Source of the DNA: Desulfosudaceae bacterium
GTDB taxonomy: Bacteria > Desulfobacterota > Desulfobacteria > Desulfobacterales > Desulfosudaceae
NCBI GenBank assembly: GCA_963674745.2
Contig: CAXXDV010000001.1
Location: 1,536,001-1,600,000, forward strand
Length of the DNA: 64,000 nucleotides
Direction of reading: 5' to 3'
The notes under the pieces are model-generated. The model was not told the origin of the DNA, did no database searches, and saw nothing but the letters and a program-made list of their open reading frames with translations. How positions within the stretch are numbered: position 1 is the stretch's first letter; each line of letters opens with the position of its first letter. Below are positions 8,394-64,000 of this stretch, in pieces. A program made the position numbers and the translations under genes.

Positions 8394-11300
8394 AAAACAA
8401 TTCCATTTGAACCGGCCCCTTACGGGACGTTTTCCCTTTTCCCAGGTCGGCGGATGCCAGAAGTCGGGTTTCGATGTCTTCGACAAAAGGGGAAATTCGG
8501 CGCTGCTCTGTTTTGCCATAAATGCGCCGCCGTTTGGCGTGGGTAAAAAACAGCTGCTCCCGGGCCCGTGTCATGGCCACGTAAAGCAGGCGGCGCTCTT
8601 CATCGATATCAACGGTATTTTTTTGCGAACGCTTTAAAGGCAGATAGCCATCCTCACAGCCGGCCACAAAAACGATGGGGAATTCCAGCCCCTTGGCGGC
8701 ATGGATGGTCATCAGCCGCACTCTGTCGGCCCGGGGAAGATGGGCGTCTGCATCTGATGCCAGAGAAATGCCGGCCAGAAACGAAACCGGCGCCAGCCCG
8801 CTTTCTCGCGCGGATTGGATCAGCAGGTCGCAGGTTTCCCGGGTTTTCTGCTTGCTGTCGATGACCGATTGAATGTCTGACCGTGTGTCAAGTATATACC
8901 GCAACTGCTCGTCCGTTTTCATTTGCTGTGCCTTATCCCGCATTTCCAGAAGCCTTTCGGCCAGCGTGGCCAGCCGGGCCTGAACCGCGTTGCCGACGCC
9001 GTCGGCAGGAAAACGAATCAATGATGACAGCATTTTATTGATGGTTAATCCATGCTTTATGTTCCAGGCTTCCAGCGCTTCAACGGTACGGGTTGACTGA
9101 CGTATTCCGCCGCCGGACAGGACCCGTTTAAAATCCATCATACTGCCGCAGTCGTTAAGCAGACGCAGCAGGGAAATCAGTTCCGCGATACCGGCCGCTG
9201 CAAACATTTTTTCCCGGCTGACCAGGTGACAGGGGATGCCGGCGGCGCCCAGGACATCGGCGAACACGGTTGCCTGGGTGCGTGTCCGGAAAAGAACGGC
9301 CATGTCGGAAAAAGCATAAGCCTTTTCCGGATCTTCATACCCGGCTTTGCCGAAATCCACGGAAAAGAACCCCAGTCCACCCACAAGGGACTCAATGGTT
9401 TTTCCCACAAACGTGGCTTCCGCTTTGTCGGAGGCCAGTCCGGCCACGGTTATGGCCGGCTGACCGGAAATGCCCGAGTAAACCCTTACCCGCTGAGCAT
9501 TTTCCGGTTGACGGCTGATGACATTGTAAGAGGCCGACAGAATCGTTTCCGTGGACCGGTAATTTTTATCCAGGCAAATGGCGGCGGCACCCGGATAGTC
9601 CCGTTTAAAATTATTGAAAAAAGCCGTGTCCGAACCACGGAAGCCGTAGATCGCCTGATCCGGATCGCCGATAACGCAGATGTTGCCGTCGGGCGGTGCC
9701 AGTGCCCGGATCAGCCGGTACTGGCCGTAGTTGATGTCCTGGTATTCATCAATAAATACAAATGGATACTGCTGGTGACAATCGCGCTGGAAAACCTCGT
9801 CCGTTTCAAGACGGTCAACGACACGTTCGATCAGATCTTCATAATCCAACAGTCCATAGCTTTTCAATAAATCCTGGTAGGCCTGGTAGACGGCTGCCAG
9901 GACCGATGGCGGCATGTCGCCGGTAATTTTTTCCAGGTCATCTGCCGGACCCAGCAGCAGCTGTTTGGCCCGGCAAATCATCTCGGCAAAGCGGGCCGGC
10001 TGTTTCTCTGCGGCCGGGTCGGCAAGATCCGCCCGTCGGACGGCGTCGGATATGATTTGCCGCTGGTCTGTCTCATCGATAATCACCGGCACGGTTTCGG
10101 TGAACGTTTTCAGGAGGCTGAAACAGAACGCATGAAAAGTGGACACCCGCGGGCAGGTGCCGGTCAAGCCCGTCATCTCCAACAGGCGCTGAGACATTTC
10201 GTCTGCGGCCCGGTTGGTAAAGGTGATGGCCAGGATGTTGTCGGGGTCGATTTTTTTTTTCGTGATCAGGCGGGCAATGCGGCAGGTAAGGGTATGTGTT
10301 TTACCCGAGCCCGGTCCGGCAATAATGATAAGCGGTCCGGTTCCGTAATTGACGGCTTGACGTTGCCGGCCGTTCAGTTTACTGAAGAGCTCTTGCGGTT
10401 GGACGGTTGTCGGGGGGCCGTCCGGAATACCCGGTAATGACGGCTGGCTGGCCGGCTTCGGCGGCGGCATCACCGCCGTTTTTGCGCAGGTGTCACCACC
10501 GGCTGTTTCAGCAGGGGGGTCGGAAAACAGGCTGATGTCACCTTTGAGACGGTCGATTTCTCGGGGTTTAAACACCTTGACCCGGCCGTATTCTCCATCA
10601 AATCCGGGTGTCAGCTGGATGTTTCCCCTGCGGATCCGGTCAATGGCGATATCCAGCAGCAACTGGCCGCTTTTTTTGATGTCTTCGACGGGTGTATCGT
10701 AAAGCACCTCGAATTCCGGGCCGACTTTTTCCAGTACAGTGTTATAGGCCGCCGTCACTTTTTTGGATTTGGGGCCTACGCCCAGAATTTCCGACAACAC
10801 TTCTTCTAAAGGAACAAGGCTGTAAAAAGGATGATGCCGGTCCGGTTTTTCGTCCGGGCCGCGATCGGCCAGTTCTTCGACCCGGTACAATACGCCCAGG
10901 GTCAAGGGCTTGCCGCATACCGGGCAGTTGCCGTCATGCTGCCGGGTAATATCGGGTGAAAACGAAATGCCGCAGGCGCGGTGGCCGTCAAAATGATACT
11001 TGCCTTCCTCGGGAAAAAACTCATAAGTACCCAGGTATTGTTCGGGATCCCCGGTTTTCAGGGCCTGCCGCATGTCGGAATAAGAAAGCCCGGTGTTAAA
11101 GAGGCAGGCCTCACGGCCCAGCTTGGAAGGGGAATGGGCGTCGGAATTGGAGACCAGGGTCAGGCCGTCGATGTTCGATACCCGCCAGTTCATGGGCGGG
11201 TCGGACGACAGCCCGGTTTCCACGGCAAAGATATGCGGCGTAAGATCTTCAAAGCATTCTTTTATGTCGTCAAAACCGGATTTTGAGCCGAACAGCGAAA

Positions 11301-60054: not shown

Positions 60055-60963
60055 TTAAAAAGTTAAAGAAATCCCCCCCTGAACAATGTGCTGGTCATAA
60101 TCATAAATATCTACATTTGAGTGGGTATGGACAAACGTGTAGCGGGCCATAAAACCCAACATGTCATTGATTTGAAAGCCGTATTCAATGCCCATGCTGG
60201 TTAAATTGTCCTCGCGCCGGTCAGAGGAGGTTCCGTTAAGATAATCCCAGGCCCGGGCATCATAATCAATCTGCTGGTAATCGCCGAGAATCCGGAAGAT
60301 GTTCCGGTCTTTAAGGCTGATAAGGTAAGACATGCCGCCGCCAAGGGCGCGTCCGTCTTCATCAAATGTCGGGTATTCGTCCACATCCTCGATCTGGGAT
60401 ATTGTTGCGTAAAAATCAACGGCCTGATTTATTTCGGGAAAACTTATCGTGACCGTGGGCGATGCCGTATAACGATGATAACTGGATTCATTGTCTTCTC
60501 TGGAATAAATGTATTTCAGCGGCAGGCTGAAGATGACGTTTCCCCGGTACCACTGCGGTTCTATGGACAACAGCTGGTCGAGTACATCATTTTCTTTGAA
60601 CTCCTCGTGAAGATCCGCATAAACATTGTAGTCGGCCCGGAGTCCGAAACCGTCGCTGAATTTGTGCTGCCAGTAAGTCGACAGGCTGATAAATCCGGCA
60701 TAATCATCCGGGTCGTCATCGGTGTAGGCAGCGTCCAGGTTCTCGACAATGTGTGAATCGTATTTGGCGCCAATGAGAACGGAAGCACCGAAATTACGGG
60801 TTTTTTCCGTCTGGTTTTTTATTCTGTCCTGAATTTTGGCTCCCCCGACCTGGGAGAGGCTCTGCGACGTGGCACTGCAGCCTCACCCCGCCGCCCAGGC
60901 CATGGTTGTGTTCATCATGTATAAAACGATAAATACGGTCAGGATACCAACTTGTTTCTTCAT
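60055..60963 (-). CDS. outer-membrane beta-barrel protein with an in-frame TGA at codon 27 (candidate selenoprotein; alternative: nonsense pseudogene)
   Basis: Manual translation: MKKQVGILTVFIVLYMMNTTMAWAAG-TGA(60883-60885)-GCSATSQ..., open in the same frame into the track ORF 60055-60570; ends HSNVDIYDYDQHIVQGGISLTF (terminal Phe). Confidence 0.75.
60840..60858 (-). promoter_or_regulatory. candidate SECIS hairpin
   Basis: mRNA CUCUCCC-AGGUC-GGGGGAG, +25 to +43 nt after the UGA. Confidence 0.5.
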
Positions 60964-61160: not shown

Positions 61161-61454
61161 TCAAAACTGGCCAAGCGGCCTGGTGAACGTAAACCGGGCC
61201 GGTTCGACAACCAGTGTACTGGCGATCTGGCCGACGTTGTCACCCATTGCTGAAAACGGCAGCGAGACGATAAACAATGTTGAGCCGATAATCGTAGCCG
61301 CAAAACCAAGGGGGCGACACAGCAGGAAATCACCCGCTACTGATGCGTCCGATACGCGGCTGGAAGACATCTCCATGGCCGGCGCGGTAATCGGCGCCGT
61401 CAGCAGTGCCGCAACCAAAAGCAGAGTGGTAAATCGACGCATCAATTTCATCAT
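61161..61454 (-). CDS. small exported/membrane hypothetical protein
   Basis: GGAGG RBS, signal peptide, D.LLCRPLG...SLPF...LVVEPARFTFTRPLG. Confidence 0.8.
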   Translation of the reverse strand: MMKLMRRFTTLLLVAALLTAPITAPAMEMSSSRVSDASVAGDFLLCRPLGFAATIIGSTLFIVSLPFSAMGDNVGQIASTLVVEPARFTFTRPLGQF

Positions 61455-61887
61455 TTTTTTTGCCTCCAGAAAAGCATTAACCGAAAGTTTTCGGATTGTT
61501 GTTTTATTAACTATAATTATGCAAAAACCGTCTGTCAACTGTAATTGGTTTTCTGAATAATCGCTTAGGCCCATTTTAAATCATATTAAAATTATTAAAA
61601 AACAGATTCTTTTAACTTTTAAAAAGGGGCGGATAAGGATTGAAAAAACCTATTCCTATGGTAGGATATGAAATCATTGTTTTTGATGCCGCGGCATCCG
61701 TTTTTCTTATTGGAAAAACACCTGAATTGACATTTAATGAAAAGAGAATATATTGGTTAACAACATTTGCTCACCATATTTTCTGCAGATTATGCGTTAA
61801 TGAAAAAAATGATTTGTTTTCAGAATGCTTGACTCACATAAGCAGCCATTAATTTAGGATCATCAACAGATTGTCAAGGAGGGGGAC

Positions 61888-64000
61888 ATGAAACGTATAA
61901 ATGCAGTTCTATTAATTGTTTTATGGGTGGTCTTTCTTTCACCCGGTCTTACCGCAGCCGGAACAGGTGAAGAAGATATTATCCCGACTGTTAAATCAAG
62001 CACCCCGGTTAACCCGGATTTATTTAAGAGCGTGGTGCCCGACTACGCTCGAGCCGTCGGTGATGTGTTGACGGTTTCAATCGATTCCAGCGGGTTCCCG
62101 GTCATTCTGTTGACGGTCACGCTTCAGAGTTCAACCGGAGACCCCATCAGCAATTTGATGATCGATGACTTTCAGGTGTCCGAACAGTCTGACCAGGAAA
62201 GCGCACCGACCGTTGAAGCCATTGATTCAGTAAATGAAACCGTTGAAAGCAGCGGCGCTTCACTGGGCTTGTTGTTCGACCTCAGCGGCAGCATGCTGTT
62301 AAATGGACGTGTCGACATGGCCAGGCAGGATGCCTTGTGCTTGTTAGATCTAATGGGATCAAATGATCGTGTCATGCTGATGTCGTTTTCCGGACCTGGT
62401 TCAGCGATGGAAATTCTGCCCCCCGGCCCGTTTACCCGGGATGCGGATGGAAACGGCCGGTATGACATTATCGAAGCGGTGAACAGCCTGTCGACGACAA
62501 AAGGCTTCAGCACAGCTGTTTACGATGCCGTGGGCATGGCAATCAGCGCCATGCAGGCGGAATCTCAGCCAAAGGGCATCGTGCTGTTCTCTGACGGCCT
62601 GTCAAACAACGATAATGTCTATGACATTAATGCTGCCATTCAAATGGCAACAAACGCCGGTATTCCTGTTGCGACACTGATTTATGGGAATGAAAACCAG
62701 CAGATTGACGGCCTTGCCGCCGGAACCGGCGGGGTGGCGTTTAATGACCCGGCCTGTCAGGACATGGACGGACTCTACAATTCATATACAACCGCTACAA
62801 CCAGCACCTATACCATCACCTATACCTCCCATAATCCTGAAGAAGACGGAACCAATCGTACGGTGAACGTGACTTATGACGGCGCTACGGGTACGGCGAC
62901 TTATGCGGTCTCCGGAACAACGCCGGTTGAGCCGGGCCAGTGCACCGAAAATTGTGGTGGTGGAACGGGCTGTTTTGTGCAAACCATGGGCGGTAATACG
63001 CTTTCCAGTCTTCGGGTTTTTTCGTATGTTTTGTTCTCGGCGCTGGTGGCGGGGCTGATTCTCTTTTTGCTCAGGCGATTTTCCGCCAGGCAGAACATCA
63101 CTTTTCTGCTGGTGATTTTTGTCCTGGCCCTGTCGGGCATGGCAAACAATCCGGCACAGGCCGGTTTGCGCAAAGGCGCCTTTTCCATCAGTCCCATGGC
63201 CGGTATTTATTATTTTGATGATGACCAGGAAATCGAAAAAGACCCTGTGGCCGGTTTCGGTCTTGGTTATCAGTTTGCCGATAACTGGGGCGTCGAACTT
63301 ATGTTGAACCATGGCCGGTATGATTATCATTACCTGGTGGCCGCCCAGTGCCTTTGCGAGACGGATGATGTCAGCGCCGACCTGGGAAGAATTGACTTGT
63401 TATATCATCTGTGGCCGGAAAGCGACCTGGTGCCGTATCTGGCTGTCGGCTTCGGGGGCATAAGCCTTGATTTTGACAGTTTTGATAAAGAAGACGACAT
63501 TTTTGCCGATTACGGCGGCGGTCTTCTCTACTTTTTGTCCGAGGACATCGCCTTTCGGGCTGATGTGCGGGGAATACACACCTTTGACGATTCTTACAAC
63601 AATCTGGCCGCTACGGTCGGCGTTTCTTTTCTGTTGGGTGGAAAACACAAAGCCGGTGCGCCCTGCGAAACGGCGGCAAAGCCTGTTCCGCCCACAACCC
63701 CTGTTGGAAAAGGGGCAATTGCCCCGGCCCCGGTTATGGCCGCCAGACCGGCCGACTTTCATATCCTGTTCGATTTTAACAAAACGGCGGTTAATCCAAA
63801 ATACTATAATAATTTCAAATCGGTAGCAGATTACCTGAAGGCCTATAAGCAAATTGTGTTAAGGATTGAGGGGTATGCCGACGCCATCGGTTCAGAGGCC
63901 TATAACCAGGCGCTTTCTCTGCGTCGGGCACAAAGCGTCAGCGCTTATCTGTCCACCAACTTTAATGTATCACGGTCACGAATGTACGTTGTCGGATTAG
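61888..64000 (+). CDS. signal peptide-VWA domain-CTERM-like anchor-internal signal peptide-OmpA barrel and OmpA C-terminal domain; 3' end runs off the window
   Basis: AGGAGG RBS; no stop by manual translation to the window end. DLSGS MIDAS, TAVYDA and LFSDG (VWA); GGGTGCF + TM + RR; second hydrophobic segment ending AQA; PYLAVGFG/YGGG/FRADVR barrel; FDFNK..EGYAD.IG..AYNQALS.RRA. Confidence 0.9.
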   Translation, partial: MKRINAVLLIVLWVVFLSPGLTAAGTGEEDIIPTVKSSTPVNPDLFKSVVPDYARAVGDVLTVSIDSSGFPVILLTVTLQSSTGDPISNLMIDDFQVSEQSDQESAPTVEAIDSVNETVESSGASLGLLFDLSGSMLLNGRVDMARQDALCLLDLMGSNDRVMLMSFSGPGSAMEILPPGPFTRDADGNGRYDIIEAVNSLSTTKGFSTAVYDAVGMAISAMQAESQPKGIVLFSDGLSNNDNVYDINAAIQMATNAGIPVATLIYGNENQQIDGLAAGTGGVAFNDPACQDMDGLYNSYTTATTSTYTITYTSHNPEEDGTNRTVNVTYDGATGTATYAVSGTTPVEPGQCTENCGGGTGCFVQTMGGNTLSSLRVFSYVLFSALVAGLILFLLRRFSARQNITFLLVIFVLALSGMANNPAQAGLRKGAFSISPMAGIYYFDDDQEIEKDPVAGFGLGYQFADNWGVELMLNHGRYDYHYLVAAQCLCETDDVSADLGRIDLLYHLWPESDLVPYLAVGFGGISLDFDSFDKEDDIFADYGGGLLYFLSEDIAFRADVRGIHTFDDSYNNLAATVGVSFLLGGKHKAGAPCETAAKPVPPTTPVGKGAIAPAPVMAARPADFHILFDFNKTAVNPKYYNNFKSVADYLKAYKQIVLRIEGYADAIGSEAYNQALSLRRAQSVSAYLSTNFNVSRSRMYVVGL

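Follow-up and report, generated by a model that had tools for sequence, protein, structure and literature searches.

In the usual view, each envelope protein of a bacterium comes from a gene of its own. In classical autotransporters, a passenger and a 12-strand barrel form one polypeptide in which the barrel exports its own passenger, with no hairpin or internal signal peptide. The locus analyzed here differs in having a small OmpA-type barrel that would be separated from its passenger in the inner membrane. The cytochrome b/c1 polyprotein FbcH of Bradyrhizobium, composed of inner-membrane respiratory proteins, is reportedly divided at a signal sequence within the chain; unlike our locus, it carries no sorting tag and yields nothing for the outer membrane. 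A literature search on FbcH and on polyproteins with internal signal peptides returned nothing relevant. In the proteobacterial dedicated sortase system, the OmpA-like protein PdsO is paired with a VWA target that bears an LPXTG-type C-terminal signal and has its sortase. This system shares with our locus the pairing of a VWA protein that carries a C-terminal sorting signal with an OmpA-family protein, and the PdsO model (TIGR03789) matches here through the generic OmpA_C domain only (101 bits vs. 152).

The kind of fusion described below has already been noted in print, in one paragraph on MXAN_5598 of Myxococcus xanthus. This single ORF encodes an N-terminal adhesin, an internal Cys-containing sorting tag, an outer-membrane barrel, and a cell-wall-binding OmpA domain; in the authors' view two genes may have fused, and the N-terminal part may be processed and anchored at the surface (Guo, Haft & Wall, mBio 2025, PMC11980579). 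As far as the published description goes, the gene analyzed here is a variant with a CFI-box tag and a VWA passenger. Compared by description rather than by sequence, both combine in one frame a secreted adhesin-like passenger, an internal Cys tag with a transmembrane (TM) helix and a basic loop, a barrel, and OmpA. The tag of MXAN_5598, however, is described as a tripartite MYXO-CTERM served by the myxosortase MrtX (PMC11980579), whereas here it is a CFI-box, natively without a TM helix or Arg cluster. Our locus also differs from that description in its VWA passenger, its Desulfobacterales-like lineage, and the lack of a myxosortase above the cut-off. The paragraph on MXAN_5598 contains no mention of an internal signal peptide or of two-gene orthologues (PMC11980579). 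Model NF047640 (AgmC N-terminus) did not match the protein studied here and matched nothing in the controls either. In another M. xanthus system, the surface receptor TraA, with a Cys-containing C-terminal sorting tag, is encoded directly upstream of its OmpA-domain partner TraB; their reading frames share four bases, and one function depends on both proteins (PMC3325183). As described there, that system consists of two genes and uses a MYXO-CTERM tag, whereas here there is one gene (PMC3325183). The TraB model NF033763 matches only OmpA_C here (98 bits vs. a cut-off of 700).

The gene lies at the end of a 64,000-nucleotide stretch of the genome of a Desulfosudaceae bacterium (the window), with Trk, CDF, and TolC-like genes as neighbors. 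From ATG 61888, which has a perfect AGGAGG 5 nt upstream, one uninterrupted frame runs past the window end; 704 aa are encoded in the window, where the frame is 3'-open, and 851 aa in the genome. It contains, in this order, a signal peptide, a VWA part, a Cys motif, a TM helix, an RR loop, a signal-peptide-like helix ending in A-Q-A, an OmpA-type barrel, and two OmpA_C domains. The observation of a single frame joining the VWA and OmpA parts, made in a first-pass annotation of the window, is confirmed by ORF calling and by the extension into the genome, and all positions given there are correct, namely CTENCGGGTGCF at 62941-62976, VFSYVLFSALVAGLILFLL plus RR at 63016-63078, and RQNITF...NNPAQA at 63088-63162.

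Table 1. Coordinates of the features of the fused gene in the window.
Feature	Position	Strand	Basis or remark
Fused precursor ORF	61888..64000	+	Residues 1-704 in window; gene end 2443 bases past window end
N-terminal Sec signal peptide, residues 1-24, end T-A-A/G	61888..61959	+	Read from sequence
VWA domain with intact MIDAS (DLSGS 62278-62292), then beta-rich domain	62098..62880	+	TIGR03436, alignment of relatives
Cys motif C-x3-C-x5-CFVQT, CFI-box-like putative sorting motif, internal	62941..62985	+	Conserved residues; orthologue tails
Gly/Ser/Thr-rich spacer, motif to first helix	62986..63015	+	30% identity among close homologues; length varies among 14 fused proteins
TM1, predicted stop-transfer helix, fused forms only	63016..63072	+	Hydropathy scan, 14/14 fused; absent from two-gene forms
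Basic cytoplasmic loop RRFSARQN, putative n-region of ancestral OmpA signal peptide	63073..63096	+	Aligns with M-K-K type N-termini of stand-alone homologues
TM2, putative internal signal peptide (ITFLLVIFVLALSGMA as h-region, NNPAQA as c-region); 63162 is the last base before the predicted SPase I cut	63097..63162	+	Aligns with orthologue N-terminal signal peptides
OmpA/OprF-type beta-barrel	63163..63642	+	PF13505, PF05736, TIGR04565, 4rlc_A
Conserved C-x-C, putative extracellular loop 2 of barrel	63349..63357	+	Loop inferred from strand pattern
First peptidoglycan-binding OmpA_C, cut by window end; second copy outside window	63766..64000	+	PF00691

The junction without a stop is common to 14 proteins, the one from the window and 13 relatives with 31-75% identity to it (P0002-P0005, P0015-P0021, P0031, and P0136). 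The four closest relatives (57-75% identity) are all fused, and the cluster of P0016 is found on contigs of 5.8-7.4 Mb. The same pair also occurs as separate genes: at 8 of the 19 loci analyzed (L048-L055, with E-values of 1e-4 to 6e-14, were left out), a VWA-CFI gene stops 14-36 residues after the Cys, and the OmpA(CxC) gene that comes next encodes a signal peptide of its own. In the two-gene relatives as a whole, the first helix is absent, and the stop comes directly after the Cys tail, 14-39 residues past the Cys-Phe-Ile motif. Among 401 sampled genomes of the order, we observed five fused and six two-gene cases and two that could be assigned to neither. In a quick phylogenetic tree, the CxC-OmpAs form one clade (SH-aLRT 97) with unfused outgroups; the fused proteins fall into one sub-clade (SH-aLRT only 86), which includes three stand-alone OmpAs. 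The first-pass annotation had named beforehand an outcome that would speak against its proposal, separate genes in close relatives with a stop between the helices; instead, the closest relatives and a whole clade are fused. The occurrence of the same pair in fused and unfused form among relatives provides a natural comparison.

That the fusion results from an assembly error or a read-through mutation, or represents a pseudogene, is extremely improbable. Bases can be gained or lost in long-read assemblies, and the two-gene relatives exist, but short-read Logan contigs of runs X1 and X2, which come from one sample that is probably the source of the assembly, reproduce the window from 61800 to 64000 without a single difference or gap; runs X4-X10 and X12-X23 contain only small shares. 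The same junction is present in the 13 other proteins, which come from separate assemblies. Moreover, the two-gene forms lack TM1, so stop loss alone cannot yield the fused layout. On the transcript side, a single 153-base metatranscriptome contig (run X11, RNA) covers 63323-63475 with one difference; transcript ends are not readable from this contig, and carry-over of DNA is possible.

The N-terminal signal peptide is fast-evolving, with 40% identity to P0002-P0004 vs. 71% for the VWA part. The latter is matched by the NCBIfam VWA model TIGR03436 over residues 71-331 (E 5e-17; 62 bits, below the 81-bit subfamily cut-off), and Pfam VWA models gave no match at E<=1 in our profile search, yet are present in the precomputed list. 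The metal-site residues of the DxSxS...T...D pattern are in place: across 23 relatives, D131, S133, T209, and D236 do not vary, and S135 is kept in at least 90%. By profile match and metal site, the passenger is a VWA domain with MIDAS. A layout with varying passengers had been anticipated, and we did not find it: of the 14 fused proteins, 12 are intact at the N-terminus and all of these carry the same VWA family, P0031 and P0136 being N-terminal fragments, and in the best 150 of 80,167 matches every protein with a mid-chain barrel carries this VWA family. The 56 ORFs around 10 module loci contain no third gene conserved beside the VWA/OmpA pair.

The OmpA-type barrel and the peptidoglycan-binding domain were recognized correctly at first pass, according to Pfam and PDB profile matches. 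The barrel, the most conserved part of the protein (84%), is matched by Pfam OMP_b-brl (PF13505; residues 411-581, 6e-19, 69 bits vs. a cut-off of 28.7), by PF05736 (2e-9, 37.7 bits vs. a cut-off of 23.5), and by the OprF barrel 4rlc_A (E 2e-5); TIGR04565 ("OMP_myx_plus") scores 55.5 bits, just below its 60-bit cut-off. Pfam OmpA (PF00691) matches residues 627-703 (6e-18, 65 bits vs. a cut-off of 27.2), and in the full protein, which has two OmpA_C stretches, the OprF C-terminal domain 5u1h_A also matches (3e-23). The protein thus has both the small N-terminal barrel and the C-terminal OmpA_C that define the OmpA family. A C-x-C in the barrel is shared by 13 of the 14 fused proteins and nine stand-alone relatives.

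Between the Cys motif and the barrel, all 14 fused proteins have two hydrophobic segments flanking a basic loop; the helices were assigned by a hydropathy scan and homology. The second segment has the features of a signal peptide: a basic n-region (RRFSARQN), a hydrophobic h-region, and small residues at -3/-1. By eye, a small-x-small site follows TM2 in 13 of the 14, P0019 having no clear site. Signal peptides of the stand-alone and two-gene OmpAs align with it throughout, their Met and basic start with the loop, their h-region with TM2, and their AxA with AQA. The signal-peptide-like segment with an AxA site pointed out earlier is thus a homologue of the Sec signal peptide at the N-terminus of the orthologues, and A-Q-A/G aligns with their cleavage sites. 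The hairpin also evolves like the N-terminal signal peptide, at 40-51% identity vs. 71-84% for the mature domains.

An uncleaved product would be one inner-membrane protein with its "barrel" and OmpA_C in the periplasm. We regard this as quite improbable, because TM2 is homologous to cleaved signal peptides with aligned AxA sites, the barrel belongs to OmpA/OprF-type families and is conserved above all other parts, and the orthologous OmpA is an ordinary secreted protein. With only about 10 residues between TM2 and the first strand, a barrel left uncut could not extend to the outer membrane; its start is a few residues from the AQA site, so that it would have to be released for insertion there.

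Two proteins could also be made from one mRNA if translation of OmpA began separately within the loop, with the long frame as a by-product. Five of the 14 fused proteins have a Met in the loop, and in one fused relative (L044) AGGAGG precedes the loop ATG by 6 nt, which makes separate translation of OmpA possible in some lineages. The window has in-frame GTG 63046 and TTG 63067, but neither has an SD-like sequence, its loop contains no ATG, and none of the four closest homologues has Met in the loop. With neither ATG nor SD in the window loop, the OmpA part must derive from the long product, which, in the absence of a stop in the upstream frame, would be made anyway. We consider an internal start very improbable for this gene.

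The Cys motif is located 490 residues ahead of the protein end, i.e., it is not C-terminal. It is conserved like the mature domains (71%), and eight of its positions (C352, C356, G358, G359, G361, C362, F363, and Q365) are invariant in five close homologues. The first-pass annotation described a CTERM-like anchor here. The Cys motif, the TM helix, and RR are indeed present, in the tripartite order of motif, TM, and Arg cluster with a 10-residue spacer, but the comparison with a GlyGly- or MYXO-type tripartite CTERM does not hold: residues 325-401, 340-399, and 337-376 drew no CTERM family (MYXO-, JDVT-, Synerg-, CGP-, or GlyGly-CTERM) with an E-value of 10 or less, and the orthologous tails are of the CFI-box type, ending 8-39 residues past a Cys-Phe-Ile motif with no TM helix. 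Because the orthologous two-gene forms have neither the TM helix nor RR, these are not part of the tag. The Cys motif is a putative sorting tag of the CFI-box type (NCBIfam NF041763) rather than a tripartite CTERM. Since a membrane helix is missing from the unfused tag but present in every fused form, it has the look of a topological device, and TM1 is probably an adaptor specific to the fused clade. This bears on the reading of internal "C-terminal" tags in other fusions.

Our motif and its orthologues resemble the CFI-box in the succession of a G/S-rich run, Cys-Phe-Ile/Leu/Val, and a short tail, and the orthologous VWA tails match NF041763, a 14-position model with a cut-off of 15.9 bits. 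Of nine orthologous terminal tails, one scores above this value (L034, 17.1 bits), six below it (7.7-14.5 bits), and two give no match; among the internal motifs of fused proteins, that of L043 scores 12.0 bits and that of L044 does not match. The window motif differs in being internal, followed by the hairpin and a whole second protein, and it gives no match to NF041763; the window copy has drifted from the model. In the genome of the window, 26 of 6941 ORFs (at least 150 aa) have a G/S-rich stretch and CF[ILVF] in the last 35 residues, about 23 of them credible by eye. Of 14 tails scanned from this genome, seven score 9-14 bits, and the choice-of-anchor U domain is present in 7 of the 14 proteins concerned. 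No paper using the term "CFI-box" was found in our literature search. The fusion provides the orphan tag with its first testable partner, and this genome alone has about 23 other tagged proteins.

We think it fairly probable, judging from sequence comparison, that the gene is a fused form of a conserved Desulfobacterales pair, an adhesin-like VWA protein with a CFI-box tag and a dedicated OmpA-family protein, bearing the C-x-C loop, as barrel and peptidoglycan anchor, and that cleavage by signal peptidase I yields two products. The N-terminal signal peptide would carry the VWA part through Sec, TM1 would stop the transfer and leave the RR loop in the cytoplasm, and TM2 would restart export. 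Signal peptidase I would then cut after A-Q-A425, producing a mature OmpA that starts with GLRKGAFSISP, for insertion by BAM and binding to the cell wall. The VWA part would be retained by the TM1-loop-TM2 hairpin until processed at the CFI-box by the machinery that serves the approximately 23 other CFI-box proteins of the genome, and would finally join its OmpA partner at the cell surface. In this respect the first-pass proposal needs correction: the cut at AQA was expected to expose a CTERM, but it would leave the hairpin rather than an exposed canonical CTERM. The gene is a clean case of a precursor that ordinary Sec and signal peptidase could split into two differently targeted proteins, and the predicted new N-terminus is a precise, checkable prediction. 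A single precursor with a two-helix hairpin is a real but rarely described way to two envelope proteins from one gene.

An alternative that shares the cut after AQA is that no processing of the VWA part takes place at the CFI-box and that it stays in the periplasm, held in the inner membrane by the hairpin and meeting the periplasmic OmpA_C of its partner from below. It would agree with the drift of the window motif from the CFI-box model, with the retention of both helices as hydrophobic segments in all the fused proteins, and with our search for a sorting enzyme, in which neither neighborhoods nor profiles yielded a candidate: no family recurred among the 76 ORFs that surround 13 CFI-box gene loci, Exosortase_EpsH reached 21.7 bits in the genome vs. 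a cut-off of 25.7, and Mrt_core reached 26.2 bits vs. a 100-bit cut-off for myxosortase, a level also seen in 9 of 14 control genomes. We nevertheless consider this alternative unlikely. The Cys motif, with its eight invariant positions, is as conserved as the mature domains, the C-x-C of the partner is in a putative outward-facing loop, and the two-gene orthologues are without any membrane anchor, so an inner-membrane site cannot be the general state of the family. Processing at the CFI-box following cleavage by signal peptidase I is the reading that we prefer.

A role of the CxC-OmpA as a general receptor for CFI-box proteins was also considered and rejected: choice-of-anchor U domains are followed by CFI-type tails in G002 (same genus, 99% complete) and G007, yet neither genome gave a CxC barrel or a VWA match with this query.

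A more specific and rather doubtful proposal, based on co-occurring cysteines, is that the CFI-box is a helix-free sorting tag whose three-Cys version (C-x2-5-C-x3-7-CF) docks, by a disulfide or a shared metal site, on the C-x-C in putative loop 2 of a dedicated OmpA, and that the fused clade evolved a new stop-transfer helix for 1:1 production. If this were true, the fusion would serve as a Rosetta stone for the CFI-box tag. L033, the one VWA-CFI gene without an OmpA neighbor, also lacks the extra Cys pair, whereas the Cys pair and C-x-C occur together in 13 of the 14 fused proteins and in all eight two-gene cases.

The gene at 61888 is a single open frame that runs from its ATG, with AGGAGG 5 nt upstream, to the last base of the window (704 aa, 3'-open). 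In the genome (G000), where the window is C1:1536001-1600000, the frame extends to a full length of 851 aa, with a second OmpA_C copy beyond the window end. NCBIfam model TIGR03436 spans residues 71-331 (E 5e-17; 62 bits, below its subfamily cut-off of 81 bits), and the MIDAS residues D131, S133, T209, and D236 are invariant across 23 relatives. The VWA assignment is based on these two observations; Pfam's VWA models gave no match to the window frame in a Pfam search. The uninterrupted frame with VWA, barrel, and OmpA parts described in the first-pass annotation is confirmed, and its positions for the Cys motif and the two hydrophobic segments are all correct. Comparative evidence supports, short of proof, the polyprotein reading of the gene.

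Segments of the fused protein and their identity to the related fused proteins P0002-P0004
Segment	Window position (nt)	Residues	Pfam E-value	Identity (%)
N-terminal signal peptide				40
VWA part				71
Cys motif	62941-62976			71
TM1, first helix + RR	63016-63078			40
TM2, signal-peptide-like, ending in A-Q-A	63088-63162			51
Barrel (OMP_b-brl)		411-581	6e-19	84
OmpA_C		627-703	6e-18	

An assembly error at the junction had been considered possible. Logan contigs from sequencing runs X1 and X2 (one sample, probably the source of the assembly) span 61800-64000 without a single difference or gap, and run X3, which comes from another sample in the same study, contains identical pieces of this region. 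The junction is also kept in other proteins, and the error can be dismissed. A word-indexed search yielded four more proteins with a stop-less junction: P0002-P0004 are full length and 61-74% identical to the window protein, and P0005 (57%) is cut at 608 aa. Nine further fused proteins with 31-42% identity (P0015-P0021, P0031, P0136) were found among the best 150 of 80,167 HMMER matches to 1.84 billion representatives, where P0004 and P0005 were recovered again. This gives at least 14 fused proteins. All 14 have two hydrophobic segments flanking a basic loop, and 13 have a small-x-small site behind the second segment (judged by eye; P0019, named only 'OmpW family outer membrane protein' by NCBI, is ambiguous). 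Contigs of 0.2 to 7.4 Mb carry the four members of the P0016 cluster.

A GTDB scan with alignment A2, one genome per species, gave 27 loci, the first 19 of which are counted here. Two are fused (L043, L044). At L032 the VWA frame runs off the contig end; the contig of G036 that continues it starts with ...GGCFINT, followed by a helix, RTRK, a helix, AGA|G, and the barrel. In eight loci the same parts are encoded by adjacent genes (L029, L031, L035, L038, L041, L042, L046, L047). Here the VWA gene stops 14-36 residues past Cys-Phe-Ile/Leu without a hydrophobic helix, and the OmpA gene lies directly downstream, with a gap of 3-167 nt in the five loci where the start is a plain ATG and overlapping frames in L038. 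The OmpA product carries an ordinary signal peptide, and it shares with the fused forms a Cys pair (C-x-C) in the same barrel loop. A CFI tail is followed by an unrelated gene in L033 and, shortly after, by the contig end in L034; the remaining six loci contain VWA relatives without this tail. A 401-genome sample of the order, which overlaps the scan and is not independent of it, contains five fused (G000, G036, G279, G282, G395) and six two-gene cases (G129, G174, G244, G297, G318, G211), and two with the halves on separate contigs. The genes flanking the module vary between loci. The VWA gene of L047 shifts once (8420-8540) from frame 3 into frame 2, so that either the MAG contains an error or the gene is broken. 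An IPTL-CTERM-tagged protein (L042:13062-13853(+); PF18203, 4e-10) is encoded 2.4 kb from the L042 pair; thus, this genome uses at least two tag systems.

The history of the fusion was addressed with a quick IQ-TREE phylogeny of 44 barrel-plus-OmpA_C rows (SH-aLRT support only, rooted on one row). The C-x-C OmpAs form a single clade (97), which contains a 'pair' sub-clade (97; six two-gene rows and five without known context) and a 'fused' sub-clade (86; 15 fused rows and four others, namely the N-truncated P0030, P0084, P0059, and G032). Because the outgroup OmpAs are unfused, the fusion is the derived state, with probably a single origin, and has been retained over a long divergence. The G032 group, whose OmpA has an ordinary signal peptide, is possibly a reversion.

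The alignment of fused with stand-alone and two-gene OmpAs (A3) points to the origin of TM2. The Met-plus-basic start of the unfused proteins matches the basic loop, their h-region matches TM2, and their A-x-A site matches A-Q-A|G. By this correspondence TM2 is a former N-terminal Sec signal peptide, which agrees with its initial description as signal-peptide-like. TM1 and TM2 show lower identity than the VWA part, Cys motif, and barrel (table), and the evolution of the hairpin thus resembles that of a targeting sequence. No ATG occurs in the loop of the window gene, and the in-frame GTG and TTG of this loop lack a Shine-Dalgarno sequence; therefore, its OmpA part can only arise from the long product. 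In contrast, the loop Arg codons of the fused, P0017-like gene in L044 (10390-10420) read AGGAGG, and an in-frame ATG (MKRSGIGLGL...) follows at a distance of 6 nt; in that lineage the OmpA part might be translated separately as well.

The interpretation of the Cys motif and TM1 as a CTERM-like anchor did not hold. CTERM models gave no match to the window junction, and TM1-plus-RR, the source of the tripartite-CTERM look, is confined to the fused clade. The motif corresponds to the CFI-box, the putative sorting motif of NCBIfam NF041763, a term for which a literature search found no paper. This model scores 17.1 bits with the L034 tail (cut-off 15.9), 7.7-14.5 bits with six other orthologous tails, and 12.0 bits with the internal motif of L043; two further orthologous tails and the window and L044 motifs gave no match. 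Among the best 150 matches, eight of 13 VWA-only proteins (P0053, P0054, P0056, P0058, P0075, P0115, P0137, P0143) end 8-34 residues past the motif. In G000, a G/S-rich stretch with CF(I/L/V/F) occurs within the last 35 residues of 26 of 6941 ORFs (at least 150 aa), ~3 of which look spurious and ~23 credible. The same pattern is internal in 13 more ORFs, and by eye only the window's has a helix behind it. Since the terminal tails of orthologs and of G000 proteins have no TM helix, the tag is helix-free in its native form, and the label 'CTERM' is better given up in favor of 'internal CFI-box plus adaptor helix'.

The ~23 tagged G000 proteins are secreted, 305 to 2585 aa long, and all without a TM helix; their tails consist of a poly-Gly/Ser run, Cys-Phe-Ile/Leu/Val, and 5-21 further residues. 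Many carry choice-of-anchor U, B, or D, PKD, Calx-beta, or LVIVD domains (examples: L015:4001-5404, L017:4001-9922(-), L023:4001-11740(-), L025:4001-5257(-)). Of 14 scanned, seven contain choice-of-anchor U, one B, and one D, and NF041763 matches seven tails at 9-14 bits. A 342-aa frame (G000:C3:2050968-2051996(+)) has another CFI-like motif at an internal position (…GSGTCFIQTT…), 158 residues from its end.

The best reading of the gene is a Sec-dependent polyprotein, all steps of which we infer. The VWA part would be exported, TM1 would halt transfer with the RR loop remaining inside, and TM2 would resume export. Signal peptidase I would cleave behind A425, after which the barrel would enter the outer membrane, the two OmpA_C domains would bind the cell wall, and the VWA part would remain on the hairpin. 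A cut at the CFI-box would be needed for the VWA part to equal its two-gene counterpart. Searches for the enzyme of this cut with myxosortase core and exosortase profiles gave scores under their cut-offs, and the neighborhoods of 13 CFI-box gene loci contained no recurring family.

A role of the C-x-C OmpA as receptor of all CFI-box proteins was rejected: genomes G002 and G007 have CFI-type tails, and no such OmpA/VWA gene was found there with this query. Thus, this OmpA is a partner dedicated to the VWA protein alone. Two extra Cys (C-x2-5-C) precede CF in the VWA tails of all 14 fused and 8/8 two-gene forms, and C-x-C is present in the OmpA partner of 13/14 and 8/8, respectively; L033, without an OmpA neighbor, has no extra Cys pair. 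A thiol-based contact between VWA tail and OmpA is possible.

A similar design has been published once. As described, the internal MYXO-CTERM of MXAN_5598 separates a large adhesin region from an outer-membrane beta-barrel with an OmpA domain (Guo, Haft & Wall, mBio 2025, PMC11980579); its authors propose that two genes became fused and that the N-terminal part is processed and anchored at the surface. Judged from this description, the window gene is a variant that differs in its natively helix-free tag, its VWA passenger, the lack of a myxosortase above cut-off in its genome, its clear two-gene orthologs, and the demonstrable ancestry of its signal peptide. The window barrel scores 55.5 bits with TIGR04565 'OMP_myx_plus', just below the cut-off of 60, the sole such match in G000. 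The TraA and TraB ORFs are reported to overlap by four bases (PMC3325183).

Upstream, on the opposite strand, two small ORFs of 171 and 137 aa (60055-60570(-) and 61161-61574(-)) matched no Pfam family; the former ends in ...GGISLTF, resembling the final strand of such an outer-membrane barrel, and the latter has a hydrophobic N-terminal segment. Just past the window end, a TolC-like outer-membrane efflux protein (L028:10975-12282(+); PF02321, 1e-55) and a 2182-aa Calx-beta protein (L028:12350-18898(+)) suggest part of a type I secretion adhesin locus. A 153-base contig from a marine-sediment metatranscriptome (X11) matches the barrel region (63323-63475) with one difference, which weakly hints at transcription of this gene, or of a near-identical one, in nature.
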